Virus genome (UHGV): UHGV-1363143
Reading direction: 5' to 3' (one strand)
Source: a virus
Length of the DNA: 64,000 nt
The position numbers were made by a program, and so were the translations under genes. Every line of letters starts with the position of its first letter. Positions within the stretch are counted from its first letter, which is position 1. The notes beneath the pieces were generated by a model. That model saw nothing but the letters and a program-made list of their open reading frames with translations, had not been told where the DNA came from and did not search any database. Below are positions 8,153 through 63,220 of the stretch, piece after piece.

Positions 8153-8182
8153 AAGCCAGTAATACTGGCTTTTTCTTTTGTG
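8153..8182 (+). terminator. rho-independent terminator
   Basis: AAGCCAGTAATACTGGCTT followed by TTTTCTTTT. Confidence 0.65.
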
Positions 8183-8220
8183 CTTTAAGTGCAATCTATA
8201 AAGTAATAGAACAAAAAGAG

Positions 8221-28100: not shown

Positions 28101-28560
28101 TGTTAGAAAAGCCAAAAAGGAAGAAAGATTCGATGAAGAAGCTTATAATGAAGCACTTTGTATTGAATATGAGAAGAATACTCTTGGTAGTGCAATAACT
28201 TACAGACCATATTGGGATACAGTACAAGCTGGAGAAGTAGTTAATGTAACTATGACTCTTAAATCAGTAAGAGAGAAGATAGATAAGAACGGTAATATGA
28301 TGGCGTTCATAAATGTTGACATAGAAAACACAGACTTAAAAGGAGTTGTGTTTGCAAGCACTTACTGTAAGAATGTAGATGTTTTTGATATGAACTTAAA
28401 TACAGAGGTCTATGCTACAATTAAGAAAGATGATAAAGGCGGCTTTATAGTAAATAGAATATTAAAGACTCCACCTAAAACAAAAATAAATACTCCAAAA
28501 GAAGTTACTGATAATATGATTGGGACATTCGATAAGTTATTATCAAGAGTAGCAAGCTAG
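25129..28560 (+). CDS. dnaE: DNA polymerase III alpha subunit, DnaE-type (copy 1)
   Basis: PHP N-terminus HIHVHDYFSFLDGYG, GPGRGSASGSL...DPIKYGLLFSRFL, and catalytic PDIDTDF. Confidence 0.85.
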   Translation: MKNFTHIHVHDYFSFLDGYGSPASKAKRAKELGMTAIATTNHNHLGGCVEFQKACFDEGIKPILGVELYYTEDTSILSKDSKVRYQLALDAATEAGIVIPPKAKKKDIAELIAPYEYNTKQHHIIFLAKNQTGWKNLIKLQSEAAKVCTYNGRFLCDDDMILKYREGLIMTTACLGNIVNQYFIKGKVKEAYNQLDKWHTIFGEDFYIEIQPLNQGDQALCNYYLIEYAKTHNIKIIATNDSHYTYETDIDDHDTLLCIGLGKLKEDKDRMKYAPEFWLRSYEEMQTAFTAQYLNSPLLREKMSLEEYLAVTELALDNTNLIADKVEANIKLGSDKPILPKLDIPNGFTSEQYLTLLSYKGLFKYLSKHKELNIQEYLNRLAFELNVINTKGYADYMLIVKDIVDWCQENDIPVGPGRGSASGSLCLFVNGITKCIDPIKYGLLFSRFLTMDRTALPDIDTDFSYLNRQEVIQYLRDKYGEDCVSFIGTYTELGVKNGLKDVGRVLNIDFTTMNALSKKIDEWTGEAPSIKFKDLDKLANGNAMDKEIYEEFKETENQYSELFRLARAFEGTPRNQGVHASGILVTPMPINDMFPTRVDKEGNLVTLYTGPQAEMVGGVKLDILGLKTLDVLDLTIKAVSPEATVYQLYDIVDGHLDDEEMFSALCRKETEGIFQLESALFKGMISDMLPDKLDDITLITSFGRPGPLSAGLHTEFANRKKGESEAREPLPNTWDIVEDSLGVLAYQEHTMRIAQRVAGFDDNQADSFLRKAQAKKKRALLDLCNQWFVYGKINEEPPTGYDYENKNQPYYDPTAKYGSEIKGGIANGYNEQDLIDYNHMIDGFCSYLFNKSHACAYSFISVCTMYLKTYYRPQFMAALLSLQSKPEKIDLYCKVAQGYGIEMAAPNINLSNEHFTAIDNKILYGLGSIKGVGATAIPTLIACRPYTDVADAYEKAGKKAFNKKIGESLIKAGAFEFQDENRNKVLNIFQDVRKAKKEERFDEEAYNEALCIEYEKNTLGSAITYRPYWDTVQAGEVVNVTMTLKSVREKIDKNGNMMAFINVDIENTDLKGVVFASTYCKNVDVFDMNLNTEVYATIKKDDKGGFIVNRILKTPPKTKINTPKEVTDNMIGTFDKLLSRVAS

Positions 28561-28566
28561 ACATTA

Positions 28567-28596
28567 AGACTAGGTTTTTCTTCCTAGTCTTTTGTT
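28567..28596 (+). terminator. rho-independent terminator
   Basis: AGACTAGGtttttcttCCTAGTCT followed by TTTGTT. Confidence 0.6.
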
Positions 28597-28654
28597 ATAT
28601 CAATATCACTCACACGTAATATTTATTATGAAATACGATTAAGGAGTGATAATT

Positions 28655-30022
28655 ATGGCTTTAATAAAAGGAAAGCAAATAGAATCCATAATCGCTTCTC
28701 AAGTTATAGAAACAGATGATAAAAAATTTGTATCTCAAGCTGAGAAAGATGAATGGAACAATAATAGTGGTAATGGATTGACAGATGAAATACTTGCCAA
28801 AATTAACAAAGCTGACGAACTAAAACATAGTCATGATAATAAAGAAATTATTGATAAATTCTCTTTAGTAGATGGTGTTCTTTTATTTGATGGAAAAGAA
28901 ATCGAAGGATCTGCTGGAGAACCAGGACAAGATGGTAAATCAGCTTATGACATCTGGCTTGAAGAAGGTAACACTGGAACTGTAGAAAAATTTCTACAAT
29001 CTCTTATAGGACCACAAGGTAATACAGGGAATGACGGTAATAGTATAGAGCTTAGAAAAACTGCCACTAGTATCGAATGGAGACAAGTTCCACATAAAAT
29101 TATAACTGCAGATTTTAATGCAAGTAAAACTATGATGACAGCAAAATCAAGTGATATCCTAGAAAAAGTAGTTATAAATTCTTTTCCAAGAAAAGCTAAA
29201 TATGCTCAAATAAAAACAATAACTGTTTACGGAGCAGATAAGGATGGAAAAGATCTAATAAACTCAAATCCTTCTATATCTACAGCTCCTCCTGGAGTGA
29301 CGTTCCCTGAGTTTGGTGGATTTGATCCTGTTACATCAGAAAAAATAGATTTAACTATCAATCCTGAAATAATAGGTAATGCAAGTATAAAAACTATAAT
29401 GGAAACTTATTTGCCAGACTTGCAAAAGTATAATCCAGAAGTAACTCATGTAAATAAGTTTTGTTTATGGGTTCATTTTTTAGATGAAAACAATGAAGAT
29501 ATTAAATTTGTTACAGCTTACTGTCATATAACAGATAGTAGAACTGGCACAAAAACAATAGATGTAGATAGTGAATGGAAAGAATTAATACCATTAGCAG
29601 CTATCACTGGTAAAGATGGAGAACAAGGTCCTCAAGGGCCACAAGGAGAGATTCCTAATATAGATCACTTAGCAACTAAAGAATATGTAACTGAAGCTAT
29701 TAATAAAATAAATGGAAACAATCATAGCCATACAAACAAAGAAGATGTTTTAGATAAATTATCTGTTGTTGATGGAAAACTTAATTTTGATAATATTCCA
29801 ATCCAATCAGAGATAGCTTCAATAAATACATCAGATATTCAAGAATACGCAGCTTCATTAATAAACGGTGAAGAACAGCTATTAATAACTAGGGAAGATG
29901 GTTCTATATATTTTACTAACGGAAAAGGTTCATATATACAATGCGGTGTTTCAAAAGAAAAGTACGACAAACTCGAACAAAGATTAATAGAATTAGAGAA
30001 TATTATTAAGGCAGCCAACTAA
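28655..30022 (+). CDS. collagen-like-repeat tail-fibre-like protein
   Basis: G-x-x runs (GSAGEPGQDGKS, GPQGNTGNDGNS, GKDGEQGPQGPQGE) and an MALIKGKQI fibre-like N-terminus. RBS AAGGAG. Confidence 0.55.
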   Translation: MALIKGKQIESIIASQVIETDDKKFVSQAEKDEWNNNSGNGLTDEILAKINKADELKHSHDNKEIIDKFSLVDGVLLFDGKEIEGSAGEPGQDGKSAYDIWLEEGNTGTVEKFLQSLIGPQGNTGNDGNSIELRKTATSIEWRQVPHKIITADFNASKTMMTAKSSDILEKVVINSFPRKAKYAQIKTITVYGADKDGKDLINSNPSISTAPPGVTFPEFGGFDPVTSEKIDLTINPEIIGNASIKTIMETYLPDLQKYNPEVTHVNKFCLWVHFLDENNEDIKFVTAYCHITDSRTGTKTIDVDSEWKELIPLAAITGKDGEQGPQGPQGEIPNIDHLATKEYVTEAINKINGNNHSHTNKEDVLDKLSVVDGKLNFDNIPIQSEIASINTSDIQEYAASLINGEEQLLITREDGSIYFTNGKGSYIQCGVSKEKYDKLEQRLIELENIIKAAN

Positions 30023-30035
30023 AGGCTGCTTTTTC
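30008..30035 (+). terminator. rho-independent terminator overlapping the stop codon
   Basis: GCAGCCaactaaaGGCTGC followed by TTTTTC. Confidence 0.55.
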
Positions 30036-30105
30036 ATTAGTTTGTTTTTGAACTTTTGCATAATATAGTTATATATGAAAAAAAATAAAAAACGGAGGAT
30101 ATAAT

Positions 30106-31242
30106 ATGTTGAAGCGTAGAGATTTTAAAGTATACCGCTTCAAGACAATGAACAAAACTATTATATACGTAGGCTACACAGGAAAAGCTATTATAGAAAG
30201 ATTCCTTGAACATGCTAAAGATAAATACTGGATAAACGAAGTTGTTGAAGTGGAAGAGTGCACTATAGAAAATGAGGCACAAGCAAGGTTAGTAGAGATG
30301 TACTACATAAACTCTCTTAAACCTATATTTAATGCAAAGGATAAGTTTGCAGGAGCTATCCTAAGTAAATTAAGACCTCAGGAGAAGAAATTTACTCATA
30401 GTTTTTATGTATTAAATGGGACTGCTACAACTTGTGTAGCTAGAACTAATGACGATTATACATTAGTAAATTTTATTCAAGTTGTTGATACTCATATAGG
30501 TATGTATTACGATTCATACTTAAACCTATATTATTCAGCAAATGATATATGTAAAGCTCTAGACATCAAATCAAAAGATTTAATTAATTTGGCTAAAAAT
30601 AATGATATGTTTATCAAGACTTCATACGATTACGTGCATAAAGGAAAAGATAAAACATCAGATTTATATTTATGTACTTATGAAGCAATAGATAGTATTT
30701 TGGCATTATCAAATAGTGAATTTAAAGCTCAATGTAGAAATAGATTATCCATCTCAAGAAGATGTGCTGATATAGCTGTTATTTATAAAAATCCAGAAGA
30801 AGCTCTTTCTGTTAAGACAACTTATGATGAGCAACTAAGATTCTTATCTGGTAATAGATATGAAGATTCAAACATAAAAAGAAGATTAGTATTTAAGGCA
30901 CTTAACTGTGATAGAGGAATGGAAGTTGTAGTACATTCATATAACCAACAAATGAATACCTATGATATAAAATTCCCAGCAGAAATATTGGCCTGCGATA
31001 TTTTCTCTATGGTAGAAGATTTAAGTAACGAATACAATCTTTCTTATAAAGACGTATTCTCAGAATTCAATGAATTTCTGATTAAATATAAAAACCTTAA
31101 CTTTTGGCAAATCAACAATTCTACAAAAAAGAAGTTTAAAGACTTCTCATTACAATCTCATTTTATAGTAGCCTTAAATAAAGATCTACTATATAATCAT
31201 TTCTTAGAATTCTATAATAAAAATATTGAGAATGCGGCTTAA
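30106..31242 (+). CDS. free-standing GIY-YIG homing endonuclease
   Basis: The N-terminus has KVYRF...IIYVGYTG...R...H...YYINSLKPIFN, the GIY-YIG core with the catalytic Arg/His/Asn spacing. Confidence 0.7.
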   Translation: MLKRRDFKVYRFKTMNKTIIYVGYTGKAIIERFLEHAKDKYWINEVVEVEECTIENEAQARLVEMYYINSLKPIFNAKDKFAGAILSKLRPQEKKFTHSFYVLNGTATTCVARTNDDYTLVNFIQVVDTHIGMYYDSYLNLYYSANDICKALDIKSKDLINLAKNNDMFIKTSYDYVHKGKDKTSDLYLCTYEAIDSILALSNSEFKAQCRNRLSISRRCADIAVIYKNPEEALSVKTTYDEQLRFLSGNRYEDSNIKRRLVFKALNCDRGMEVVVHSYNQQMNTYDIKFPAEILACDIFSMVEDLSNEYNLSYKDVFSEFNEFLIKYKNLNFWQINNSTKKKFKDFSLQSHFIVALNKDLLYNHFLEFYNKNIENAA

Positions 31243-31276
31243 ATGGCACTCGCACGCTACTCAGTTAAAAAAAAGT

Positions 31277-31298
31277 GGACCAGGTGAAATCCTGGTCC
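31277..31298. terminator. bidirectional terminator at the point where + and - strand transcription converge
   Basis: GGACCAGGtgaaatCCTGGTCC flanked by AAAAAAAA and TTTTTG. Confidence 0.65.
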
Positions 31299-31325
31299 TT
31301 TTTGTGTACTACAAATACTATTAAT

Positions 31326-31502
31326 TTATTTTATAGTTATTTCATTATTATTAATAGTTAATTCAATTGCAGTTAAACAGTTATCACAATCATGGATAAC
31401 CTTTTTATTCATTTCTCTAATAGTAATAGTATCGCCTTCATAATACATAAGATTACATTCTGGGCATTGAAAAGTGTTTTTTATTATCTTTGTCTCACTC
31501 AT
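31326..31502 (-). CDS. small zinc-ribbon protein (~58 aa, not in ORF track; ends accurate to +/-1 nt)
   Basis: Minus strand: MSETKIIKNTFQCPECNLMYYEGDTITIREMNKKVIHDCDNCL... with an RBS AAGGAG. Confidence 0.4.
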   Translation of the reverse strand: MSETKIIKNTFQCPECNLMYYEGDTITIREMNKKVIHDCDNCLTAIELTINNNEITIK

Positions 31503-31562
31503 GCGTTGTCTCCTTTATACTCTTTTAAATTAAGTACTGTAGCACACATTAGTGAGATGCAT

Positions 31563-31835
31563 TTAAACTCTGCTTAAAAAATCCATAGCACTTTCTAAAC
31601 ATTCTATATCATAACGTTTATTCTTATCTTCTATAGTCTCTGGAAAACCAGTATAGTCTTCTACACTATCTGAAATTGATCTAATTAATTGTTGTAAGTA
31701 ATATATAGTTACACTCTTGTGTTTTGAATATAAAATAGGTTTATTTTTTTCAGCTTTATAAGCACCCCTATATTCTCCAACTTTAAATGCAAGTATTGTT
31801 ATAAATAATAAAAAAATAATATCAAATATCATCAA
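31563..31835 (-). CDS. small membrane protein
   Basis: The N-terminus is hydrophobic (IFDIIFLLFITILAF). Confidence 0.45.
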   Translation of the reverse strand: MMIFDIIFLLFITILAFKVGEYRGAYKAEKNKPILYSKHKSVTIYYLQQLIRSISDSVEDYTGFPETIEDKNKRYDIECLESAMDFLSRV

Positions 31836-31844
31836 TTTGACTCC

Positions 31845-32138
31845 TTAATATCTGTTGCGAGATGATTCGCAATACTTATTTAATTCTTTTTTAAAGCTAT
31901 CATAATTTTCATTAGATCTCTTTTCAATATCCTTTTCCATAAGAAATATCTTATTTGCTAGAAACTCAGCAATCATATGATTCACTTCTCTTTTAGCATG
32001 ATTAACGAAGCTATCTTGATTCGTTGATTCTTTTATTAGTCTATTTTTTTCTTCTTTCATTATAACTAGTATTTCTTCTCTGCACATATCATAATTATAA
32101 ATTTTAGCTGAATTATTATTTAAATCCATTCCTATCAT
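31845..32138 (-). CDS. hypothetical protein
   Basis: ORF. Confidence 0.4.
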   Translation of the reverse strand: MIGMDLNNNSAKIYNYDMCREEILVIMKEEKNRLIKESTNQDSFVNHAKREVNHMIAEFLANKIFLMEKDIEKRSNENYDSFKKELNKYCESSRNRY

Positions 32139-32596: not shown

Positions 32597-33853
32597 CTAC
32601 ATTGCAGTGTCTAAGTATTCTTCATTATCACTATCTTCGATATCATGATCTTCAATATTACTTATTTCAAACTTCTTAGGCATATTTGAATATCTATATT
32701 TTTTATATAGCCATTCAACACCTTTTGGAGTTACCTTTACAGTAATTCTGCTTGATTCATTATCTTCGTCAATAGGTTTAACTTCAAATAATCCTTGGCC
32801 TATAAATCTTTGATATGGAGTATTTCTATCTTCTCCGCTAGAAATTAAAACGCCATCTCTTCTTAACCATGCTAATAATGTATTTCTACCTATTATAGTT
32901 TTAGAAGTCGCTGTTCTTGGTATAGCTACCATTTTAGCAGCGGCAGAGAAGCTATATAATCCATCACTATTTATAAAGTCTTCATAGGCCATAAGCTTTG
33001 GAGCATTATCAACCTTTTCTCTCAATAATGCTTCTTTTTCTTCTTTTTCTTTTTTATAGTTTTCAAAAAGTTGTATAGCTGCATCTGGATCATTTAAGAA
33101 CTTCTCAACAGTAGAACCAGTAGCATAGAATCCATGTTGTCTTATATCAGGTAAAACTTCATCAAATACCCAAGATTCAAATTTTTGAGCAGCAGGTAAT
33201 TTAGATCCTGTTATTAATCTATAAATATCACCTTGAGGTATAATGATCATAGATTGTTTTCCACCTTTTGAAAGGATGTCGTGTTTCACGACTCCCTTAC
33301 AATGTCTAGCTATTGCATCTCTGTAATTGCTGTATCCAAGCGCCTTCGCAACGTCTTTTGCTACAGCATATTCTTTGTGGTTTATAGCTACAAACCTTAC
33401 TGTACCAAATATTTCATTTTCCTTAAGAATAACCTTACTTGGTTTACTGTCTAGTTTTATAACTTCAGTACTAACCATTATCTTCTTAGGTTTATTTGTT
33501 TTACGAGTTCTAGTTTTAGTCGCATTAGATTCAATAGAACCAACGCTACTAAGATATTCTATTATTTCAATAGTAGTATCATTAACTCTCATTCCTGATA
33601 CTATTTTAATTGCAGCTTCAACTGTTATATCATAATTTATAACAGGTCTACCTATAGTACTTTTATTAACTACAGTTGTAACATAATCTTTATTTGCTAT
33701 AAGATTTTCAGATTTAATCTTAGCTCTAATCCAAGTAGGGAAGTCCCTTCTTATATTTAAGCTACCATACAATTCTCTTGCATCTAGCATTTTTTCATTT
33801 CCTTCATTAAATATTTTTATAGTTCCTTCTTTTCTCATAATCAATTCCTCCAT
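32597..33853 (-). CDS. phage antirepressor (Bro-N domain plus KilAC/ANT C-terminal domain)
   Basis: FGTVRFVAINHKEYAVAKDVAKALGYSNYRDA is Bro-N; the C-terminal ...AAAKMVAIPRTATSKTIIGRNTLLAWLR is KilAC-like. Confidence 0.7.
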   Translation of the reverse strand: MEELIMRKEGTIKIFNEGNEKMLDARELYGSLNIRRDFPTWIRAKIKSENLIANKDYVTTVVNKSTIGRPVINYDITVEAAIKIVSGMRVNDTTIEIIEYLSSVGSIESNATKTRTRKTNKPKKIMVSTEVIKLDSKPSKVILKENEIFGTVRFVAINHKEYAVAKDVAKALGYSNYRDAIARHCKGVVKHDILSKGGKQSMIIIPQGDIYRLITGSKLPAAQKFESWVFDEVLPDIRQHGFYATGSTVEKFLNDPDAAIQLFENYKKEKEEKEALLREKVDNAPKLMAYEDFINSDGLYSFSAAAKMVAIPRTATSKTIIGRNTLLAWLRRDGVLISSGEDRNTPYQRFIGQGLFEVKPIDEDNESSRITVKVTPKGVEWLYKKYRYSNMPKKFEISNIEDHDIEDSDNEEYLDTAM

Positions 33854-34110: not shown

Positions 34111-35325
34111 TTAGTGGGCCTTATAGTTATATATAGGCTTTATTATTTCAATATCATCTACAGTGTCAACTATGTTTTCTAGAATTTCTTCTATTGGTTT
34201 ATAAGCCATAGGAGCTTCATCAAGAGTTGATTCACATACAGAAGAAGAGTAGATATCTTTCATTGTATCTTTAAACTCTTCTATATTTAATAACTCTTTA
34301 GCTTGACTTCTAGAATATAATCTTCCTGCTCCATGTGGAGCAGAGTAGTTCCATTCTGGATTACCTTTTCCTACAGCTATAATAGATCCATCTCTCATGT
34401 TGATAGGAATCAACACGACTTCGCCATCAGCAGCACTAATTGCTCCTTTTCTTAATATAGGATAACATCCTGTTTTAGAAGTAACATCACAATCAACTTC
34501 AATATAGTTATGAATAGTGTGAAAAGATCTACCTGTTTTTAATTCCATTTTTTCAATAATAATATCCGCTATAGCTTCTCTATTCATTTGAGCATACCAT
34601 TGAGCTATTTTCATATCATGAAGATAGTCATCATAGTTTTTTCCTGCAAGATAACATAATGAATCTGGTATTTTAGGTCCATCTAAGAGCTTTAAAGCTA
34701 CTTGAAGTTCTTTTTCTCTTCCTTCAAGTTTGTATTGAGAGATTATTTTAGCTTTCTCATGTTTATTATCGTTTATAGTTTTAATAGCTAATTTTTGATA
34801 ATACTCAGCTACTTGCTTACCTAGATATCTAGAACCAGAATGAACCACTAAATATAAGTTGCCGTTAGCATCTTTATTTAGCTCTATAAAATGATTTCCG
34901 CCTCCTAGAGTACCTATTGACTTTCTAGCTCTATCTAAATTAATTTGAGACTTGCAAAGTAATTCATTTAAATTTACATACCTATTATAATTATGATCTT
35001 TACTCCTTATGCTCTGCCCTGAAGGAATATATTTTTTAATAACTTCATCTAAAGCTTTTAAATCAATTTCCTTATCTTTTAGTTGTACGCAGAACATTCC
35101 ACATCCTATGTCTACACCTACTAAGTTAGGAACGACTTTACCATGTAAAGTCATTGTTGTTCCTATAGTACATCCAGCACCAGCATGAGTATCAGGCATT
35201 ATTGCAATGTTTGAATCTTTAGCGAACTCTTGATTACACAATTCGATTATTTGAGAGATTGCTAAAGATTCTATATTATCTGTAAATACTTTTGCTTCAT
35301 TATATTTTCCTTGTAATTTAATCAT
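34111..35325 (-). CDS. rtcB: RtcB RNA 3'-phosphate ligase
   Basis: MPDTHAGAG, GVDIGCGM, GGGNHFIE, HSGSRYLG and PHGAGR motifs. Confidence 0.85.
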   Translation of the reverse strand: MIKLQGKYNEAKVFTDNIESLAISQIIELCNQEFAKDSNIAIMPDTHAGAGCTIGTTMTLHGKVVPNLVGVDIGCGMFCVQLKDKEIDLKALDEVIKKYIPSGQSIRSKDHNYNRYVNLNELLCKSQINLDRARKSIGTLGGGNHFIELNKDANGNLYLVVHSGSRYLGKQVAEYYQKLAIKTINDNKHEKAKIISQYKLEGREKELQVALKLLDGPKIPDSLCYLAGKNYDDYLHDMKIAQWYAQMNREAIADIIIEKMELKTGRSFHTIHNYIEVDCDVTSKTGCYPILRKGAISAADGEVVLIPINMRDGSIIAVGKGNPEWNYSAPHGAGRLYSRSQAKELLNIEEFKDTMKDIYSSSVCESTLDEAPMAYKPIEEILENIVDTVDDIEIIKPIYNYKAH

Positions 35326-53394: not shown

Positions 53395-56300
53395 TTATGC
53401 AATAAATTGTTGAAGGATTAAAGAATCCCTATCTCTTTTTGCTTTAATTGTAATAACTTGATTGTTTTTCATATATTTTGTATTTCCTTTATATATTGTA
53501 CTGAATACAGTACTATCAATGTATCCTGATGTAGTTTCTAAAGTTAAGAAGGCCATTGGATTATTATTCTTATCTTTTATCTTCTTAACTCTTCTAACTA
53601 TAGCTTGTAATTGACATACTTCTCCATGTCTAACTCCTTCAAATGAAAATGGTTCAAAATATTGAACTGGATTACTTGTTATAGGTACTTCATATAACAC
53701 AGATTCTATGTCTTGAAGACTAGCTTCTGATTTAAATATCATATCTTTTGAAATTTTAATCTCGGCCAAAGGTTCTTCCTTTCTAGCTTCACAATATTCT
53801 TTATATACTGCTAGTCTATTTTCTTCAAAACATTCAAAAGCTCCTCCAAAAATAGAAACCACAAATGCCTTCTTATTGAATTTACTTGTAACCTTGTCCA
53901 TAGTATCTTTTAAAGAGCTTAATGGTCTTGCAGCGTCTAATGCATCATATGCAACTTTACCTAAGCCTTTAGCTGCAACGAATCCTATTCTTAATTGGTT
54001 ATCTTCTATTGAGAATGGCCATAATGATTTATTTATATCTAATCCTAAGAATCTTATTCCTACTCTTCTACATTCTTGTATTGTTTCAGATATAGATTCT
54101 TTTCTATCATATGCATTTGTTAAAGAGTTCTTCATCCACTCTAACGGATGATATGTCTTTAAGTAAGCTGTGTAATAGCATAATAATGCATAAGCAACTG
54201 CATGAGATTTATTAAAACTATACTTACCAGTATCAAGCATTATATCCCATATTCTAGTTGCTACATCTTCAGGAACTCTATTCTTATTAGCAAGTTCTCT
54301 ATATTCGGTTTCTGCAGCTGCTAATTTTTCTTGTTTCTTTTTAGCAGCAAACTTCATTACTTGGAATGCTCTTTCTAGATCCATACCAAAGTTAACAAGT
54401 ATTTGCATCATTTGTTCTTGATATAAAAGAACACCATTGGTACTAGCTGTAACAGAATCATAGAATGGATGTATAAGTTCAATTTCTCTTTTACCTTCAA
54501 CTACTTGCATATATACTTCATCTAGTTTAGAAGATATGCATGGTCCACGAACTAATGCTAAACAAGCAGCTAGTTCTTCTATTGTTCTAGGTTTTAATCT
54601 ATCCATTCTCTTTTTATAAGTTTCTGATGATATTTGGAATAACGTAGTAGTATTTTTAGATCCTATCGTATCCCAAACATAAGGATTATTTAACCATACA
54701 TCATCATCAAAATCAGCTTCGAAATTAATATCTATTTCTGTAGCTGAAGTTACGTCAAGAGTTGCTAATGATAAATAATCATACTTAATGGCACCTGCAT
54801 ATTCAGCATCTGATAAATTTAATGCTGTGGCCATCATGCCATCGTCTTTTCTATTTTTGATTAATGGGACGTATTCTTTTAAAGGAATAGGACTAATAAG
54901 AGTACCAGCAGCATGTATGCTAGTTGTTTTAGATAAGTTTTCTAATTTCATAGCAGCTTCGAACCATTCTTCATGTTCAGCTTTAATAGTTCTTAATTCT
55001 TCGCTAATTTCAAGAGCTTCTTCAATAGACAAATCAGTTTGCTTTTCTCCATCTTCATCATTGTAATATACTTGAGGAATCAATTTAGCAGTATACTCTG
55101 CAAAATCGCTCTCTATATTGAAAATTCTAGCAGTATCTTTAATAGCAGAACGAGCCTTTCTTATAGTAAAAGTACTAACAAGAGCACAACATTCCTTACC
55201 ATATTTATTAAGAGTATATTCAAACAGTTCCATTCTTCTGTTACTAGCAACATCTAGGTCTACATCTGGAACAGAACCCTTTCTATGAATAGAAATAAAT
55301 CTTTCAAATAATAATCCATACTTAATAGGATCTACTTTTGTTATCCCTATTAGATATGCAATTAAACTTCCTCCTATCGAACCTCTGCCTGGTCCCATTG
55401 GAATATGTTTCTTTTTTGCATAATCATAAATATCTTTAATGATTAATAAATATCCACTAAATCCTACTTCTTTTAAAGTTTCAAGCTCATATTGAGCTCT
55501 ATCATAATAAACTGATGGATCTTTTAATCTATAACTTATTTCATTTAATTTATCTATAGATATTTTTGCAAGATATTCATCCTCATTATATCCCTCTGGT
55601 ATATCTGCTTTAGGCATTTTTATTTTACCATCATACAAATTAGATAAATCTATTTGTGAAGCTATTCTAACTGTATTATCAATAGCTTCTTCTACTATTT
55701 CTCTATCTAGATAAGGAAATAATTCTACTATTTCCTCATGATTCATTAAATAATAACATTTATCAGGATAAATCATAGCGTCATCATGCTTTTTCTTTTG
55801 GGCCATCTTTACATGTTGATCATGTGCTATATAGTCCTCTGCATTTAAATAATGAATGTCGTTAGTTACAACCAGCTTTGTGCAGGTTTCTTTAGCTAAT
55901 TCCACTAATAATTTATTAACTGTTATCTGATCTTCAAAATCACCTGGCTGAATTTCAAGATAAAAGTCAGCAAATATTTCTTTATATTCTTCAATTAATT
56001 TAATTATTTCTTTGTATCTTATATTAATATAATCATCTATAATATCTTCTTGAGATATTTCTATTGGATCTATTCCTGCAGTCTTTAAAACATTGTTGAT
56101 ATTATCCATATGCATTTCTAAGCCTTCAATACCATCATTACTCACTTTAACTATATCCATAATCATTTTAGGTATTCTACCACCTAAACATGCAGATAAA
56201 GCTATTAAGTTTGAACCGTGTTCTCTTAATACTGATATATCTGTACGTGGTTTGTAGTAATATCCATTGAATTGTGAGTCTGCTGATATATGTAAAAGGT

Positions 56301-56583
56301 CTTTATAACCTTGTTTGTTCTTAGCTAATAATACTAAATGATAATACCCTTTTTGTTTTTCAGTACGGTCATTGCACTCATAGGCTTCTAATCCTATTAA
56401 TGGCTTGACACCATGTTCATTGCACTCTTTGTAAAATTCAATTACATTGGCCATAGAACCATGGTCAGTAATAGACAATGCTTCTATGCCTATATTCTTG
56501 GCTTTCTTCACAGCATCCTTAGTTTTTAGTATGCTGTCACCAATTGAACCTTTCGCATAGTGCATGTGTAAAGGTATATACAT
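53395..56583 (-). CDS. dnaE: DNA polymerase III alpha subunit, DnaE-type (copy 2, divergent paralog)
   Basis: PHP domain (PLHMHYAKGSIGDS), GPGRGSIGGSLIAYLIGITKVDPIKYGLLFERF, and catalytic PDVDLDV. Confidence 0.85.
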   Translation of the reverse strand: MYIPLHMHYAKGSIGDSILKTKDAVKKAKNIGIEALSITDHGSMANVIEFYKECNEHGVKPLIGLEAYECNDRTEKQKGYYHLVLLAKNKQGYKDLLHISADSQFNGYYYKPRTDISVLREHGSNLIALSACLGGRIPKMIMDIVKVSNDGIEGLEMHMDNINNVLKTAGIDPIEISQEDIIDDYINIRYKEIIKLIEEYKEIFADFYLEIQPGDFEDQITVNKLLVELAKETCTKLVVTNDIHYLNAEDYIAHDQHVKMAQKKKHDDAMIYPDKCYYLMNHEEIVELFPYLDREIVEEAIDNTVRIASQIDLSNLYDGKIKMPKADIPEGYNEDEYLAKISIDKLNEISYRLKDPSVYYDRAQYELETLKEVGFSGYLLIIKDIYDYAKKKHIPMGPGRGSIGGSLIAYLIGITKVDPIKYGLLFERFISIHRKGSVPDVDLDVASNRRMELFEYTLNKYGKECCALVSTFTIRKARSAIKDTARIFNIESDFAEYTAKLIPQVYYNDEDGEKQTDLSIEEALEISEELRTIKAEHEEWFEAAMKLENLSKTTSIHAAGTLISPIPLKEYVPLIKNRKDDGMMATALNLSDAEYAGAIKYDYLSLATLDVTSATEIDINFEADFDDDVWLNNPYVWDTIGSKNTTTLFQISSETYKKRMDRLKPRTIEELAACLALVRGPCISSKLDEVYMQVVEGKREIELIHPFYDSVTASTNGVLLYQEQMMQILVNFGMDLERAFQVMKFAAKKKQEKLAAAETEYRELANKNRVPEDVATRIWDIMLDTGKYSFNKSHAVAYALLCYYTAYLKTYHPLEWMKNSLTNAYDRKESISETIQECRRVGIRFLGLDINKSLWPFSIEDNQLRIGFVAAKGLGKVAYDALDAARPLSSLKDTMDKVTSKFNKKAFVVSIFGGAFECFEENRLAVYKEYCEARKEEPLAEIKISKDMIFKSEASLQDIESVLYEVPITSNPVQYFEPFSFEGVRHGEVCQLQAIVRRVKKIKDKNNNPMAFLTLETTSGYIDSTVFSTIYKGNTKYMKNNQVITIKAKRDRDSLILQQFIA

Positions 56584-56599: not shown

Positions 56600-56632
56600 A
56601 GTCAAATAAAAAAGACCAGTTAATACTGGTCT
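56600..56632. terminator. bidirectional hairpin terminator
   Basis: AAAAAGACCAGTtaatACTGGTCTTT. Confidence 0.55.
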
Positions 56633-56638
56633 TTAAAT

Positions 56639-57149: not shown

Positions 57150-57300
57150 TATAATTTATTGTATATTTATTTGAAATTGTGCTATAATATTAGTAAGGAA
57201 AGGTCAAGTGTTACATTTGACCTATGGCTTATGATATGTTAAAGATTAAAGTAGCTTAACTTGGTGAGTGTGGGCTACTTTTTTCTTTTTGTATCTTTAT
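57150..57300 (+). ncRNA. candidate small RNA or regulatory leader
   Basis: An extended -10 promoter TGcTATAAT (57180-88) is followed by a perfect hairpin GGTCAAgtgttacatTTGACC and then a terminator AGTAGC...GCTACT plus TTTTTTCTTTTT. No + strand ORF is present. Confidence 0.25.
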
Positions 57301-57439
57301 CTTCAGTTACAGACAATTCAGCTGTAACACCATCTATACTTCTATCAACTTTCGTTGAGAATTTCTTTCCAAATACAATCGAAACTATAGCAACTATAGT
57401 TACACTGATTATAAGTAAAGCTTGTATAAATTCTGACAT
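57275..57439 (-). CDS. holin-like small transmembrane protein (start moved to MSEF)
   Basis: MSEFIQALLIISVTIVAIVSIVFGKKF..., then a charged tail. RBS GAAGGTGG. Confidence 0.4.
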   Translation of the reverse strand: MSEFIQALLIISVTIVAIVSIVFGKKFSTKVDRSIDGVTAELSVTEDKDTKRKK

Positions 57440-57562
57440 GGATACCACCTTCTTCCCGTCATTAAAATTGCCATAGAGCAATTTGTAACACTCGACCTAA
57501 ATGAAGAAGGATAACTTATCATAAGTTTCCTTACTGAATTATTATACCATAATTGGTATAAG

Positions 57563-58324
57563 CTAAGCTATGTTAACTTTTAAACTTTCTGTTTCTATTG
57601 TTGTTGCATTAAACATATGCAGATCTCCAGTTATTTTATTAAATCCTATAATATTATTTAAAATATTAAAAGTAGTAACTGCACTGGTTATGTTTGCACC
57701 TATGTTTTGAATATTTTCTAACATGATTTCACCACAGCTTGCTGTAGGTTCTTTTATTTCCTCGTCTTCAAGTATTTGAGGAAAGTAAGTACTAGCAGAT
57801 GGAAGTACCACTTCATCACGAGTTCTATAAGCTATTACAGTTTGTCCTGTAAGTTCATCTAAGCTACCACTATTACCAGTATCAATTGCAATAATTCCTG
57901 GGCAATTATGATTAGTAAATTCAAAATCATTAAATGCTTGGTCAATATATTTCCTAGCTTCATTATTATCTACACATGAAACTATTATATTTGTTGTTCC
58001 ATAAGATCTATCTAATAATTTTAAAACATCTTCTTTAGATGATATGTACTTATCGACATAGGATATTTCCATTCCAAATACTGCAGAATACCTATCAGAT
58101 AAAACTTCAGCTTTTAATTTTCCCACATCACTTTCTAAGAATTTTTGTGTTCTTAAATTTTTTTCTTCTACTCTATCACCATCAACTAATATAACTTTAT
58201 GTTTCATATTATAAACCTTGTTATTTCCTATTAGCTGACTTAAAAATGAAATAAGGTGAGAACCAGTCCCACCTACACCTACCACTATTATATTATAAGA
58301 TGAATTCTTTTTAAGCTCTATCAT
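57563..58324 (-). CDS. ThiF/MoeB-family E1-like adenylyltransferase
   Basis: VVGVGGTGS (Rossmann fold), VDGDRVEEKNLRTQ, and EPTASCGEIM (the MoeB/ThiF Cys motif). Confidence 0.8.
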   Translation of the reverse strand: MIELKKNSSYNIIVVGVGGTGSHLISFLSQLIGNNKVYNMKHKVILVDGDRVEEKNLRTQKFLESDVGKLKAEVLSDRYSAVFGMEISYVDKYISSKEDVLKLLDRSYGTTNIIVSCVDNNEARKYIDQAFNDFEFTNHNCPGIIAIDTGNSGSLDELTGQTVIAYRTRDEVVLPSASTYFPQILEDEEIKEPTASCGEIMLENIQNIGANITSAVTTFNILNNIIGFNKITGDLHMFNATTIETESLKVNIA

Positions 58325-58346
58325 TATATTGCCTCCTTACAAGCCT

Positions 58347-58913
58347 TTAGCCTTTAGTTTGGAATTTAAGAAGAACTTCCAATGTTCCAGTAGATTCATC
58401 AAAGTCATAGAATACCTTATCTTTCTTAAAGTTTGGAAAATTATATTCTGTAACTAATTTAACTCTGATATCTTCAAATTTTGCATTGGTATCTTCTTCG
58501 ATATATATTTCTCTACCGAATACTTTAACAATCCTTGGACCATCATATTTAGGTTCTTTTGGTTTTGAACTCTTCTTCTTAGAAGATTTCTTTGCTTCAG
58601 TTTTAGTTCCATCAGGATTTCTATCCTTATCATATTCAACTAAATGATCTATAGCAAAGGCTATTGCATCACATGCATTAGTAAATGCATTTGGATTTAA
58701 TGTAGAATATCCACATTCATTATCTGCAGGAGTTAGAACATCAAATCTTCCATCTCCCCATTCCATTACTCCTATCGTTAAATTTTTATATTTAATTTCT
58801 CTATTTTCTCTAAAGAAAGCCTCAAACTGCTCTCTAGTCATAGACTCTGTAATATTTGTATCCTCCTCATCATGAAGATCGCTTATATAATTAATTGTAT
58901 TTTCTGTTGTCAT
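58347..58913 (-). CDS. protein with a C-terminal ubiquitin-like (beta-grasp) domain ending in Gly
   Basis: The last ~67 aa (RIVKVFGREIYIEEDTNAKFEDIRVKLVTEYNFPNFKKDKVFYDFDESTGTLEVLLKFQTKG) align to ubiquitin and follow a Lys/Ser linker. The stop codon lies 21 nt before the E1 ATG, with a shared RBS. Confidence 0.5.
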   Translation of the reverse strand: MTTENTINYISDLHDEEDTNITESMTREQFEAFFRENREIKYKNLTIGVMEWGDGRFDVLTPADNECGYSTLNPNAFTNACDAIAFAIDHLVEYDKDRNPDGTKTEAKKSSKKKSSKPKEPKYDGPRIVKVFGREIYIEEDTNAKFEDIRVKLVTEYNFPNFKKDKVFYDFDESTGTLEVLLKFQTKG

Positions 58914-58931
58914 AACATCTCTCTCCTATTC

Positions 58932-59633
58932 TTATCTTAAATTATCTAAAAAGCTTTGATATGTTGGTGTATTGTATGATTGCACTAAAATATTATTATC
59001 AAACGAAGAACCTTCCATTAATTCTAAAAGTTCTTTATATGAAAATGGACTAGAATTACTTCCAATGTACCCATCATTATTATTTGTCATTGATAAAAAC
59101 ATTTCAGGAATCATTACTATATTGCTTAAATCATTTAATTCAAAATCACTTAATGTATTCCCTCCAAGGCATACACTTTTTGTATCGAATACATTACTGT
59201 AAGGGTATCTATATATAGGCATGTCCATAGTTATAGGACCATTTTGCACACATCCTATTCTTAACGAAACGCATTTATTATTACATACTTTAATAGCATA
59301 TAAAGTTCTAGGCATAGCTACTTTCTTGTATACTTTTTTCGCAAGTTTCATATCTGCAGGAACTTGTTCTCTCAATAAAACATACCATTTAGATTTACTA
59401 GAGAATATTTCTTTGACTTGAATTGTAGATATCATATGATCTCCTGGTAGTATATCTGATACTTGAACGTTAGCTGATGAGTTATCAAAATTATCTTCTG
59501 TAGTGGAACAATTTAATAGTGATAATAAAGTTTCAAAACTTATATTTTTATTTGTCTTAACTCCATTTTCATTTTCAACAATAACTTTACAGTAATTACT
59601 ATCATTCAATTCTATGATTGTTCTCTCGCTCAT
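58932..59633 (-). CDS. candidate E2-like (UBC-like) protein
   Basis: YPYSNVFDTKSVCLGG resembles the HPN...G.ICL E2 active-site segment. Confidence 0.3.
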   Translation of the reverse strand: MSERTIIELNDSNYCKVIVENENGVKTNKNISFETLLSLLNCSTTEDNFDNSSANVQVSDILPGDHMISTIQVKEIFSSKSKWYVLLREQVPADMKLAKKVYKKVAMPRTLYAIKVCNNKCVSLRIGCVQNGPITMDMPIYRYPYSNVFDTKSVCLGGNTLSDFELNDLSNIVMIPEMFLSMTNNNDGYIGSNSSPFSYKELLELMEGSSFDNNILVQSYNTPTYQSFLDNLR

Positions 59634-60238
59634 TAAGCTACCTCCTTTTCATTTAAAGTTTGTACATTTAATTGTTTTTCATAAAATTCTACTTTTTCCC
59701 TAATCTCTTCTAAAAAGATACAATATGTTTCAAAAAACATATCTATCATAAAATATTCTTCTGGAACAATTATATAAATATAATCATTAAAAATAATCTG
59801 TACATCTGTTACTGTGCTTTCTTCACACATACAGCAATTTTCTGTAAATAATTGAATAAATTTATTTATAAAATCATTGTTATTTAACTTATACTTTATA
59901 AGTTTATCAATATCAGGATTTTCTATTTTCACGGTTAATCCATTTATACAGTCTTTATCATAAGTAGAATATGGTATCTTACCACCTATAGAAATCAATT
60001 CATCTTTCATATACTCATTAGTGCCACAGTAACCAGTTCCTATTGAAGTACCCAAAAGTCCTCCAAGGAATTCTACTTGATCTATGCCTCCATATCCATC
60101 TTCATCAGCCCTTGTATCTATTGTTATATAAGTGCCTTCTTCGTAGATATATCCTAATTTTTTTATTCTCATGCAATTACCTAACATAACTAATTTCCCA
60201 AATAATCTATCTATTTCATCTTCATTAATATCAATCAT
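59633..60238 (-). CDS. hypothetical protein (no His residues; CCMCEE cluster)
   Basis: ORF. Confidence 0.45.
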   Translation of the reverse strand: MIDINEDEIDRLFGKLVMLGNCMRIKKLGYIYEEGTYITIDTRADEDGYGGIDQVEFLGGLLGTSIGTGYCGTNEYMKDELISIGGKIPYSTYDKDCINGLTVKIENPDIDKLIKYKLNNNDFINKFIQLFTENCCMCEESTVTDVQIIFNDYIYIIVPEEYFMIDMFFETYCIFLEEIREKVEFYEKQLNVQTLNEKEVA

Positions 60239-60577: not shown

Positions 60578-60871
60578 CTAAGCTTGCTCCTTCTTATTTA
60601 CATAAAGATCTAATACTAATTCATTTTTCTTATTCCTAGAAACTAATATAGTTGCCTTTTCTGTTTTTGTAGGTTTATAATCATCCTCATATTTTGTTAT
60701 AAATATTACTTCAGCCCCTTTTTCATTATCTATAATATTAGCTAGAGGCTGAAAGTCAATCTTGCCAAGGTCAAAGTCAAATGATGCTATAACTTCATCA
60801 TTGACTTTAATCTCTTCGACATAATGAGTCTTATTTTTAAGCCTAATCAAAGTTACAACTATATTATCCAT
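60578..60871 (-). CDS. hypothetical protein
   Basis: ORF. Confidence 0.4.
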   Translation of the reverse strand: MDNIVVTLIRLKNKTHYVEEIKVNDEVIASFDFDLGKIDFQPLANIIDNEKGAEVIFITKYEDDYKPTKTEKATILVSRNKKNELVLDLYVNKKEQA

Positions 60872-62762
60872 TTATGATTTCCTTTAACTCATCTAATGAA
60901 TTGATTATAGGAGTACCTAAATCTGTAGCTTTGGTGTACTTAGTAGTACCTTCCTCACCAGGACTAGCTAATAAATAACTTGTCTTAGAAGAGACAGAGC
61001 CACTAGTCTTATGTCCAGCATCCTTAATCATTTGTTCGATTTCTTTTCTAGGAATATCAAATGAACCTGTAATAACAAATGTCTTAATATCTGAATTAGA
61101 AATTTTTTTAGCTACTGTAGTTACATCTAAAGGTCTTACTCCAGCATCCCATAGCATTCCAAATCTTTCTGCTCCATATTTATTAAGATTCTCTATCATT
61201 TTAGGTCCTATTTTTTCAATAGAAGCTATAGTTTTATAACCCGTCTTTACTTCATTTATTAAATTAGGCAAAGTACGAATAGTATTAGCTATATCTTCGC
61301 TAGCAGACTTTCCTATTAAAGGTATGTTAGCTGCTAAAATGAATCTCTTTAATTCAGTTTGTTTTGCTTTTTGAATACTGTTATATAATTTTTCAGCACT
61401 CTTTTCAGCAAACCCTGGTAGATTTAATATATCTTCTTTATGAAAATATAATGGCGTTGTGAAATCATACTCATATTCTTTTTCTTCACAATAATTCATT
61501 ATCTTTATAATAGTTTCTTTTGATAATCCAGTTATATTTAAAGCTTCTCTTGATGAAAGTTTGATTGTTTTACCTAATTCTTGAGCGTCACATTCTTCCC
61601 CAGTGCAATATAATATATTATTTTTAAATTCTGTAGGGGCTCCACATACTGGACACTTCTTAGGAGGTATTATTGGAAAAGTATCTCTAGTTACCTTAGG
61701 TTCACCTTTTATTATTTTAGGTATAACATCATTAGCTTTAACTACAAATACTCTCTCATTAATTCTGATATTAAGGGCGTTAATAATGCTAATATTGTGT
61801 AATGTAGCTCTATTAATTGTAGATCCTAATATTCTAATTGGTTCAATTTCTCCAACGGGTGCAATTATACCAGTTTTCCCTACTTGCCAAGTAACAGATT
61901 TAAGCGTAGTCCATTCACCTTGGGCTTCAAACTTAACAGCTATCGCACCATTAGGATGATGTCTAGTAAATCCAAATTTCTTACTTCCATCATGCTTTAT
62001 GACTAACCCATCAATATCATAATCTAAAGAATCCCTATATTTATCTTCATAAGTTAATATATAATCTAATGCTTCTTCTTCAGTCTCTGGCTTAAAATTA
62101 TCTACAGTATTCCAGCCTAACATTTGTAAAGACATAATTTGATTACTTGAATCATTTGATTCTTCAGTTCTAATCATATTGTAAGCAAAAGCTTTTAATC
62201 CTTTTACTTTATTAATATCAAGTTGTCTAAGCATACCAGCTGCAGCATTACGAGTATTATCAAATGGTTTTTCTCCATTTTTTATTTTTTCTTCATTTAA
62301 CTTATTAAATTCAGATTTTAACATTACAACTTCTGATCTTATAGGAACTTGAACATTACTAAATTCGCCTATTCCATCGACATTCGTTACTTTTAATGTA
62401 ACTACTTCACCAATTTCTCCGTTTCCTCTAGTCACATGTTCTCCACTTGGATATGATACTAAAGTTAATCCATCCATTTTAGGCTGTATAGTAACAGGCC
62501 ATAACCTATGGATATGAGATTTTAATTCATCAATCTTTGTAATTTGGCACTTATCTAATGAAGATATATTTGTTGTATGTTGATATTTAACGCTAGTTTC
62601 ACTAGCTTCTCCTGGCACATAATCATATTCTTCAAGACCAGTTAATTCTAAGTATCTTGCTTTAAGTGCATCATATTCAAAATCTGATATCTCAGGAGAA
62701 TCTTGATTATAATATAAGTTATCATGATAATCTAATAACTTTTTTATTTCATTGGCATTCAT
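60864..62762 (-). CDS. ligA: NAD+-dependent DNA ligase (LigA)
   Basis: KMDGLTL (KxDG adenylation motif), a Cys4 zinc finger CPVCG...CTGEEC, and a C-terminal BRCT-like domain. Confidence 0.85.
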   Translation of the reverse strand: MNANEIKKLLDYHDNLYYNQDSPEISDFEYDALKARYLELTGLEEYDYVPGEASETSVKYQHTTNISSLDKCQITKIDELKSHIHRLWPVTIQPKMDGLTLVSYPSGEHVTRGNGEIGEVVTLKVTNVDGIGEFSNVQVPIRSEVVMLKSEFNKLNEEKIKNGEKPFDNTRNAAAGMLRQLDINKVKGLKAFAYNMIRTEESNDSSNQIMSLQMLGWNTVDNFKPETEEEALDYILTYEDKYRDSLDYDIDGLVIKHDGSKKFGFTRHHPNGAIAVKFEAQGEWTTLKSVTWQVGKTGIIAPVGEIEPIRILGSTINRATLHNISIINALNIRINERVFVVKANDVIPKIIKGEPKVTRDTFPIIPPKKCPVCGAPTEFKNNILYCTGEECDAQELGKTIKLSSREALNITGLSKETIIKIMNYCEEKEYEYDFTTPLYFHKEDILNLPGFAEKSAEKLYNSIQKAKQTELKRFILAANIPLIGKSASEDIANTIRTLPNLINEVKTGYKTIASIEKIGPKMIENLNKYGAERFGMLWDAGVRPLDVTTVAKKISNSDIKTFVITGSFDIPRKEIEQMIKDAGHKTSGSVSSKTSYLLASPGEEGTTKYTKATDLGTPIINSLDELKEIING

Positions 62763-62773: not shown

Positions 62774-63220
62774 CTATCTTACTGACACTGAACCACCAGC
62801 ATCTATGTCTCCTTTATGAGATCCACTTATAATTACTGAACCTCCACAGTCTATATTTCCTGTAACATCTCCTTTGGCTGTAACACTACCGCCACAATCA
62901 ATGTATCCTCCTAATTTGCCACCTATAGTTACACTACCACCGCAATCAATACCATTTATCACATCGCCTGTGACTTCTACTGAACCATTGCATTGAATAC
63001 TTTCTACATTACCTTCAATGATTACGTTTATGATTGTATTGCTGTTAATTCCATCAATATCATTGATTTCTTTTCCATCAACAATAATCTTACCATTACT
63101 AATGGATACATTATTGCCTGCAACACTAATTGTTTTGCCATTAATAGATACTTTATGCATATTTCCATTGCTAATAATACATTGACTATTTCCATTTATA
63201 AAATTCTTAAAAAAGCCCAT
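62774..63220 (-). CDS. bactofilin-like beta-helical repeat protein
   Basis: Repeated ...G.V.G.IDCGGSV... units (GGSVTIGGKLGGYIDCGGSVTAKGDVTGNIDCGGSVIISG). Confidence 0.55.
   Translation of the reverse strand: MGFFKNFINGNSQCIISNGNMHKVSINGKTISVAGNNVSISNGKIIVDGKEINDIDGINSNTIINVIIEGNVESIQCNGSVEVTGDVINGIDCGGSVTIGGKLGGYIDCGGSVTAKGDVTGNIDCGGSVIISGSHKGDIDAGGSVSVR

Follow-up and report, generated by a model that had tools for sequence, protein, structure and literature searches.

PRTRC (ParB-related, ThiF-related cassette) operons are the described systems closest to the locus reported here. They were predicted in 2006 by Iyer, Burroughs and Aravind as operon type 6d, which encodes an E1, an E2, a JAB peptidase and a ubiquitin-like protein (Ubl) (PMC1779556). 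No functional study of PRTRC or of Prok-E2_D was found in the literature, and the comparative jumbo-phage survey of the Aravind group makes no mention of ThiF, JAB or Ubl. Conjugation of bacterial Ubls has been demonstrated only in host defence, in the type II CBASS, Bil and Bub systems, all of which work without an E3, and the Ubls of Bil and Bub carry diverse N-terminal domains (PMC11601603). Here we describe a cassette of E2-like, Ubl-tailed and E1-like genes in the virus genome UHGV-1363143, of which a 64-kb stretch (the window) of a ~240-kb genome was analyzed. Judged from sequence, the cassette probably (about 0.7) represents a minimal jumbo-phage pathway of Ubl conjugation that is evolutionarily related to PRTRC/type 6d, and its most likely function would be covalent conjugation of the tailed protein without an E3 or a peptidase. 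The gene content, family membership, Ubl fold, invariant residues, genomic linkage and purifying selection are shown here.

The cassette genes are co-oriented on the minus strand. In order of transcription they encode an E2-like protein of the Prok-E2_D family (233 aa, 58932-59633), the Ubl-tailed protein (188 aa, 58347-58913) and a ThiF-type E1 (253 aa, 57563-58324). A first-pass annotation of the window, made from the letters, had described these three as tightly packed and phage-borne, and both statements hold. The gap between the E2 and Ubl genes is 18 nt and that between the Ubl and E1 genes is 22 nt, not 21 nt as had been given for the distance from the Ubl stop codon to the E1 start; each gap contains a GGAG/GGAGG Shine-Dalgarno sequence. 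The motifs quoted there (VVGVGGTGS, PTASCGEIM, KKSSKKKSSKPK, YPYSNVFDTKSVCLGG and a final KFQTKG-stop) are all present. Left unlisted was a fourth, fast-evolving gene, an open reading frame (ORF) of 201 aa (59633-60238, minus strand) whose TAATG stop overlaps the E2 start codon. Against a ~95%-identical relative, the ratio of nonsynonymous to synonymous substitution rates (dN/dS) is 0.08 for the E1, 0.10 for the Ubl protein and 0.12 for the E2, compared with 0.075 for DnaE and 0.27 for the 201-aa ORF. Synteny of the cassette is kept among relatives with as little as 49% identity. Because dN/dS is as low as in DnaE and synteny is conserved, the cassette ORFs are genuine genes and not chance ORFs. 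That the window is phage DNA is confirmed by its gene content, which includes genes for tail-fibre proteins, for a lysin-domain tail protein, for RecJ and a helicase, and for RtcB, an antirepressor and two polymerases. Proteins closely related to those of the cassette occur on metagenomic contigs of 226-249 kb, which one source assigns to Caudoviricetes.

The product of the E1 gene matches Pfam ThiF (PF00899) over residues 5-250 with 63.2 bits against a cut-off of 28.1 (2.6e-17). Its best NCBIfam model is PRTRC_ThiF (TIGR03736, 1.1e-27), with a score of 97 bits that lies below the equivalog cut-off of 144.75. The window E1 was aligned with eight homologs of 23-63% identity. Two are from phage relatives and three from Firmicutes plasmids; Bacillus phage vB_BceM_WH1 and Salmonella phage Arash provide one each, and Ralstonia phage Dina provides the canonical PRTRC ThiF. 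Invariant in this alignment are the Rossmann glycines G16/G18/G19/G21, D50, N56, Q60, K71, V118-D119, R124 and S196-C197, and the E1 also aligns with the active adenylation domain of Uba1. These features agree with the E1 call of the first-pass annotation. The adenylation motif, given there in its canonical NLxRQ form, is actually DGDRVEEKNLRTQ, with NLRTQ and the Arg one position earlier. Cys197 (codon 57736-57734) is the natural candidate for a thioester cysteine, as judged from its conservation. No CxxC zinc motifs are visible in the alignment, and a rhodanese domain is absent from the 253-aa protein. Among PADLOC models the E1 gives partial and weak matches to Cap2 (3.7e-6), BilD (1.3e-5) and 6A-MBL cap2_3 (2.4e-4), and MccB is among the few solved structures with a sequence match (3.5e-4).

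The E1 gene is apparently interrupted in L029 (Paenibacillus lautus pAZOPL1, 5842-9298), where two fragments surround a reverse-transcriptase gene and the insertion looks like a group II intron. In L020 (1038-2113) the E1 is apparently split into ORFs of 49 aa and 233 aa.

The E1 could instead serve a sulfur carrier, with the adenylate converted to a Gly thiocarboxylate, as for ThiS, MoaD, TtuB or Urm1, and the sulfur passed to a cofactor, tRNA or phage DNA. Like the ThiF/ThiS and MoeB/MoaD pairs, the cassette combines a Rossmann E1 of ~250 aa, the size of ThiF and MoeB, with a beta-grasp protein whose last residue is Gly; weak model matches range from 2e-11 to 7e-5, and many nucleotide-metabolism genes lie near the cassette. 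However, the matches to the NCBIfam models of ThiF, MoeB, Uba1, TcdA and SAMP-E1 (1e-11 to 1e-4) are all under the curated cut-offs, and for the ThiF/MoeB equivalogs far under them (43.7 versus 159, 40.9 versus 275 and, for MoeB, 22.4 versus 376 bits). The E1 lacks the rhodanese domain, a domain never present on the E1-like enzymes of the JAB/E2-type operons described in 2006 (PMC1779556), and in the near-identical locus L007 the 10 kb to each side of the cassette contain no ThiG, MoaE, cysteine desulfurase or other partner enzyme. Linkage to an E2-like protein with an invariant Cys is obligatory, the tail ends in Lys-Gly and not Gly-Gly, and the Ubl is carried by variable larger proteins with Lys-rich linkers, which have no role in sulfur transfer. 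Sulfur-carrier chemistry, which the first-pass annotation had also disfavoured, is improbable.

The E2-like call made earlier for the gene at 58932-59633 is upheld at the family level. The window protein itself scores 24.5 bits against Pfam Prok-E2_D (PF14460), for which the cut-off is 25, and two plasmid homologs score 25.3 and 26.1 bits. All 24 aligned members of the family match Prok-E2_D with E-values of 0.01 or less, the best being 5e-10. In hhalign comparisons the E2 profile aligns with a profile of PRTRC protein B from twelve Burkholderiales loci at P=1e-4 over the active-site loop, where YrYPySNVFDTrsVCLG is set against aPyFNVw..G.ICtGN. The putative active-site loop, P144-Y-S-N147...C155, is encoded at 59169-59204 (minus strand; Cys155 codon 59171-59169). 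P144, N147, C155 and G157 are invariant in 26 sequences, including Dina PRTRC protein B and the Arash homolog. The Pro and Cys are kept too in seven plasmid and phage homologs, WH1 among them, and the Asn is replaced by His in two plasmid homologs. Asn147 and Cys155 are spaced by 8 residues and the Cys is followed by Leu. Classical UBC/E2 enzymes have an HPN-x8-C loop in which the Cys is likewise followed by Leu, with the same spacing as in N147...C155-L156. The AlphaFold2 (AF2) model of the E2-like protein (predicted local distance difference test, pLDDT, 78.6) consists of a helix, a beta-meander, the loop and then three helices, and a UBC fold was not independently recovered from this predicted structure. 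The assignment follows from Prok-E2_D membership together with published profile analyses (PMC1779556), not from an independent fold match.

The AF2 model of the 188-aa protein (pLDDT 78) has a disordered acidic N-terminus, a small, confidently modeled alpha/beta domain (residues 27-95), a linker and a C-terminal domain. The C-terminal ~67 aa had been proposed to be ubiquitin-like, and the last ~65 residues (124-188; 58350-58544, minus strand) do model as a beta-grasp fold, with the elements b-b-a-b-b at residues 127-182. The protein ends in Lys187-Gly188-stop; Gly188 is the last codon (58352-58350) and is invariant in 25 of 25 close homologs. A Lys-rich linker, KKSSKKKSSKPKEPK, precedes the Ubl at about residues 101-123 (58545-58613, minus strand), with pLDDT below 50 at 108-116. 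The N-terminal globular domain, about residues 20-100 (58614-58856, minus strand), is modeled with pLDDT 84-91 as a helix, four strands and a helix. It is conserved within the close subfamily only and has no Pfam match in 25 members.

When 1.84 billion representative proteins were searched exhaustively with the profile, a Ubl family of 73 clusters at 50% identity was recovered, and in almost every cluster the matched region extends to the very C-terminus. The C-terminus is exactly [KR]G in 68 of the 72 clusters inspected. Lys makes up 30% of the 30 residues before the Ubl, compared with 10% elsewhere, and at least 20% in 61 of 65 representative clusters. The N-terminal regions of the family fall into many mutually unrelated groups. 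The constant module of the family is a Lys-rich linker, the beta-grasp and a terminal Lys-Gly, and the front part varies. No Pfam, NCBIfam, PHROG or PADLOC model matches the Ubl-tailed protein, 50 members of the family give no match to Pfam, and the Ubl profile matches none of the PDB sequences. Aligned by hhalign with Prok_Ub (PF14454), the single sequence gives P=0.02 and a 12-sequence profile gives P=0.003, in register, with a probability of 10%. By direct sequence comparison, homology of the Ubl to Prok_Ub is weakly indicated.

ThiF-like enzymes are versatile carboxylate activators. A MccB-like modification of the C-terminus without conjugation, of the kind that ThiF-like enzymes perform in secondary metabolism and in which the E2-like protein would be a scaffold only, draws on the match of the MccB structure to the E1. 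The substrate here, however, is a beta-grasp of 65 residues that folds and ends in a conserved Gly; it is not a short variable-core peptide. The best E1 model is PRTRC_ThiF, and the invariant Cys residues of E1 and E2 fit a thioester relay, which makes the MccB-like alternative very improbable.

The likeness of the cassette to PRTRC is visible in each of its three proteins. Its E1 is closest to PRTRC_ThiF, its E2 belongs to the Pfam family of PRTRC protein B and has the same P..N...C loop, and both systems have a small beta-grasp ending in ...KG. Both are carried by mobile elements, including phages, and for both the function is predicted. Ralstonia phage Dina has a fully annotated PRTRC in the order E, C (Prok_Ub), F (alpha-hel2), B (Prok-E2_D), A (DUF2016 plus Prok-JAB) and ThiF. 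The cassette differs from this in its order E2, Ubl, E1 and in its lack of a DUF2016/JAB protein A, an alpha-hel2 protein F and a recognisable protein E; the Ubl-tailed protein takes the position of protein A. Its E1 falls under the PRTRC equivalog cut-off. The type-6d E2 has a downstream His where the cassette E2 family has an Asn. The cassette Ubl is missed by the Prok_Ub model, shares its polypeptide with a preceding N-terminal domain and Lys-rich linker, and stops at Gly, whereas in canonical Prok_Ub proteins ...G[TRA]KG precedes either an extension or the stop codon. No JAB peptidase was found in the window by hidden Markov model, phmmer or motif searches. No Pfam match to PRTRC protein E or F was obtained, and hhalign of the N-terminal domain and the 201-aa ORF against proteins E, F and A gives probabilities of at most 0.5%. 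No ParB is among the Pfam domains annotated across the 20 kb that surround the cassette in the 95%-identical relative, and no ParB-specific search was made. Because a JAB, the alpha-helical protein, protein E and a recognisable Prok_Ub are lacking and the E1 is below its cut-off, the cassette is best classed on sequence grounds as a relative of PRTRC and not as a member.

Matches to the JAB motif regular expression at 28643-30019 were rejected, as they correspond to a repeated HSHxNKE motif in a protein without a family match. The idea that the N-terminal domain of the Ubl-tailed protein is a fused PRTRC protein E was likewise rejected at the sequence level (hhalign probability 0.1%). An architectural analogy stays, in that both would present a small domain, a basic low-complexity linker and a Ubl gene or domain. 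Protein E of the Dina PRTRC (L002 410-1000) has a low-complexity region with an AT-hook-like KRGPGRPPK motif, which suggests DNA binding and is a parallel to the basic linker before the window Ubl.

Four of seven PRTRC components are missing here, the window E2 is just below its Pfam cut-off and the Arg of NLxRQ is displaced. These features could mean that a PRTRC-like system has shed its JAB and other parts and persists here in inactive form. Such decay is hard to reconcile with purifying selection as strong as that on DnaE and with invariant catalytic residues. Moreover, the same reduced architecture is present in many divergent lineages, and the Ubl ORF ends at Gly in nearly all clusters (the 68 of 72 above). 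We regard a decaying remnant as highly improbable.

Related triads are found in the large isolated phages vB_BceM_WH1 of Bacillus and Arash of Salmonella, where the order is an E2_D-like gene, a gene for a JAB protein of 412-460 aa, and ThiF. These loci and that of Alicyclobacillus plasmid p1 share the E1 and E2_D types of the window cassette and also have a middle gene between E2 and E1. Their middle protein has 313-460 aa and a JAB peptidase, whereas that of the window cassette has 188 aa and stops at Gly. The Ubl profile detects no Ubl in WH1 or Arash. The p1 locus is the bridge to PRTRC, for its middle gene encodes a linker, a Ubl (...KAHKKG) and a JAB in one polypeptide; it scores 5.7e-4 with Prok_Ub (sub-threshold), 2.3e-8 with Prok-JAB and 4e-6 with the Ubl family model. 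Where a JAB is present, the Ubl has sequence after the Gly, and where the ORF stops at Gly, no JAB was found nearby. This pattern fits the processing role proposed for JAB (PMC1779556). In Arash (L003 1519-4539) the E2_D-like gp248c and the ThiF-like gp246c are labelled 'structural protein' in GenBank, and they may be packaged in the virion if that annotation rests on virion proteomics.

The Ubl family also has matches on 38 plasmids that are large (110-256 kb) and non-mobilizable and whose hosts include Bacillus, Paenibacillus, Lysinibacillus, Clostridium and Thermoanaerobacterium. The order [~180-aa gene]-[E2_D-like]-[Ubl-tailed]-[ThiF-type E1] recurs in the eight plasmid and eight metagenomic loci inspected. 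An E1 of this type lies within 3 kb in 13 of 14 independent Ubl loci, and an E2_D-like gene is present in all 11 Ubl loci that have upstream sequence. The plasmid cassettes adjoin dnaN, dnaX/holB, helicase, primase or SbcC-like genes. Among GenBank phages, neither a DNA search with the 4.3-kb cassette region nor tblastn with the Ubl-tailed protein and the family consensus gave a match. Scans of IMG/VR with three remote members of the Ubl family gave no confirmed relative.

One homologous cassette belongs to the Bacillus thuringiensis israelensis element pBtic235, a jumbo phage-plasmid that can be induced and forms plaques. This cassette (NZ_CP051859.1 26198-28263; L023 4956-7021) is 100% identical to the pBTHD789-2 locus. 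In published RNA-seq tables, 240 pBtic235 genes are induced, and the list of genes differentially expressed with mitomycin C does not contain the E2, Ubl or E1 gene (PMC9700832). The flanks of the cassette (25642-26196 and 28544-31111) are induced 8- to 24-fold by mitomycin C (PMC9700832). Absence from the list could reflect low counts or induction-independent expression, and it is a weak hint that expression of the cassette is not tied to lytic induction. A second ThiF-family gene of pBtic235, followed by a gene for a 'reverse transcriptase-like protein' (819-2364), is positionally unrelated to the cassette.

Host systems offer further comparisons. Type I Bil (BilABCD) tags a phage tail protein, and Cap2 of type II CBASS is an E2-E1 fusion of ~600 aa by which the CD-NTase's C-terminus is conjugated. 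The window cassette resembles type II CBASS in a weak similarity of the E1 core to Cap2 and in an E3-less thioester relay, inferred or shown, and it differs in having no CD-NTase, effector or Cap3. With Bil and Bub it shares separate E1, E2 and Ubl genes, the lack of an E3 and diverse N-terminal domains on the Ubl (PMC11601603). Bil and Bub are host defence systems, whereas this cassette is phage-encoded, has an E2 of the Prok-E2_D family and no deubiquitinase, and in PADLOC its only Bil match is the weak and partial one of the E1 to BilD. Tail assembly protein I of lambda and T1, with the TAPK JAB, is also a phage-encoded beta-grasp with a conserved C-terminal Gly (PMC1779556). That system is without E1 and E2 and lies in the tail module, whereas the window cassette has both enzymes and lies in a replication module.

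Phage proteins are targets of host Ubl systems (PMC11601603), and the cassette might act in counter-defence by conjugating or binding to thwart host Bil, Bub, type II CBASS or other systems, either through a tag that inactivates a host defence protein or through competition for the E1/E2 parts of the host. The N-terminal domains and the 201-aa partner are fast-evolving or swapped, as in an arms race, and the E1 is weakly similar to the E1 domains of Cap2 and BilD. Against this, many Firmicutes have the same type of cassette on their large resident plasmids and phage-plasmids, and PRTRC is found on plasmids and integrative and conjugative elements; this wide presence suggests a general mobile-element function. 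The E2, the Ubl and the neighboring genes have no match among PADLOC models, and the pBtic235 cassette is missing from the induced list while its neighbors are induced, a weak hint against a purely lytic-cycle role. Counter-defence is an unlikely explanation, though not as unlikely as a sulfur carrier. As a role for the cassette, modification of the virion or counter-defence, both raised in the first-pass annotation, is speculation.

Several points weigh against a working conjugation pathway. The function of PRTRC-type systems is known by computational prediction alone (PMC1779556). No target, E3 or peptidase is identifiable in the 64 kb seen of the ~240-kb genome. The Ubl is without a significant sequence match to Prok_Ub or to Pfam models, and it ends in Lys-Gly, not Gly-Gly. 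The displaced Arg (NLRTQ; NLKTQ in L005) is limited to the jumbo-phage lineage and could alter the handling of ATP.

If the cassette is a conjugation pathway, as we favor, we infer each chemical step as follows. The E1, probably a homodimer like ThiF and MoeB, would adenylate Gly188 of the 188-aa protein with ATP and Mg. The acyl group would pass to a thioester on E1 Cys197 and from there to E2 Cys155, and the E2, without an E3, would transfer the 188-aa protein to a target lysine through an isopeptide bond. Because the ORF ends exactly at Lys-Gly, no JAB would be needed to expose the glycine. Since the Ubl is the tail of a larger protein, the whole protein would be attached, including its N-terminal domain; and with no peptidase gene in the neighborhood, the system probably does not itself undo the modification. 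The Lys-rich linker could plausibly be an acceptor for self-linked chains, or an element for docking to nucleic acid or to an enzyme.

The setting of the cassette in the window is a replication and nucleotide-metabolism module. Because of this setting, the replication neighbors on phage-plasmids and the nominal ParB link of PRTRC, the observations point to a role in establishment or maintenance of the replicon or in manipulation of host proteins, rather than in virion assembly. A bolder and doubtful proposal is that the Ubl-tailed proteins are 'ligatable effectors': the E1 and E2 would covalently attach an N-terminal domain that evolves fast and is specific to the lineage to proteins of the host or the replicon, or would polymerise it via the linker Lys residues, and this would make the cassette the first complete E1-E2-Ubl cascade in bacteria that a virus encodes. 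The payload, and not a tag, would then be the functional part, with which jumbo phages and phage-plasmids of Firmicutes would establish or maintain their replicon or disarm the host.

The cassette is not categorically new, because its kind was predicted in 2006 and relatives are already annotated as PRTRC/type 6d in some phages; it is less unprecedented than the first-pass annotation had made it. What is new is the reduced E2-Ubl-E1 architecture without JAB; a sizeable Ubl family that lacks a Pfam model and has a variable head, a Lys-rich linker and a KG tail; and its spread over uncultured jumbo phages of the gut and over Firmicutes phage-plasmids, among them pBtic235, which is open to experiment. 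As a compact three-gene (possibly four-gene) version of PRTRC/type 6d that is free of a peptidase, the cassette is attractive for minimal reconstitution, and the pBtic235 copy makes the role of a mobile-element Ubl genetically approachable.

The 201-aa ORF occupies the same position in the relatives L004, L005 and L007 and evolves faster than its neighbors. It has no family match in the profile libraries searched and no similarity to PRTRC A, E or F by hhalign (probability at most 0.5%). It is also dissimilar to the ~180-aa genes that take the equivalent place in six plasmid cassettes, and these are dissimilar to one another as well. Its product may be an accessory, adaptor or substrate protein.

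Every gene in the right half of the window is on the minus strand. Upstream of the cassette is the gene for a NAD-dependent DNA ligase (60864-62762, minus strand), with two small ORFs between it and the 201-aa ORF. The E1 gene is followed, in the order of transcription, by two ORFs, the first of 68 aa with a single hydrophobic stretch and the second of 163 aa, and then by a terminator-like hairpin and the gene for a DnaE-type polymerase. The ORF at 57275-57481, which had been labelled 'holin-like', matched none of the family models searched. The hairpin (56611-56634, minus strand) is the first one downstream of the cassette in a consensus scan, and the transcription unit may end there. From the ligase gene up to the hairpin the same scan gives one terminator-like site, inside the E1 ORF.

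The large polymerase encoded at 53395-56583 (minus strand) is a DnaE-like protein of 1062 aa whose relatives have PHP and DNA_pol3_alpha domains. The window encodes another large, replicative-type polymerase at 25129-28560 (plus strand; 1143 aa), which matches phrog_405 'DNA polymerase' at 5e-261. In L005 (9433-12977) DnaE is in two ORFs of 813 aa and 287 aa. A LAGLIDADG endonuclease gene splits the NAD-ligase gene in L007/L008 (4754-8047), and the ligase gene of the window is intact. In L004 (5977-7996) an HNH endonuclease gene and about five small genes are inserted between the E2 and Ubl genes. The insertions in L007/L008, L005 and L004 are mobile and differ between relatives.

Directly upstream of the ligase gene, 62774-63220 (minus strand) encodes a 148-aa protein with repeated (D/I)CGGSV units, whose match to Bactofilin is weak and sub-threshold (E-value 1e-3; 19.8 bits against a cut-off of 27.9). 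An RtcB RNA ligase gene (2e-65) adjoins a gene for an AntA/Bro-N/KilAC antirepressor; the pair is at 34111-35325 and 32597-33853, both on the minus strand. A phage RtcB suggests repair of cleaved tRNA, and the antirepressor hints at a temperate lifestyle or at interplay with resident prophages. The protein with the HSHxNKE repeats (28646-30022, plus strand) has 458 aa and no family match, and its motif HSHxNKE...(F/L)SxVD occurs twice, ~300 residues apart. Cumulative GC skew has its maximum near 30 kb of the window, and at ~30000-32000 both GC and AT skew flip sign where the genes turn from the plus to the minus strand.

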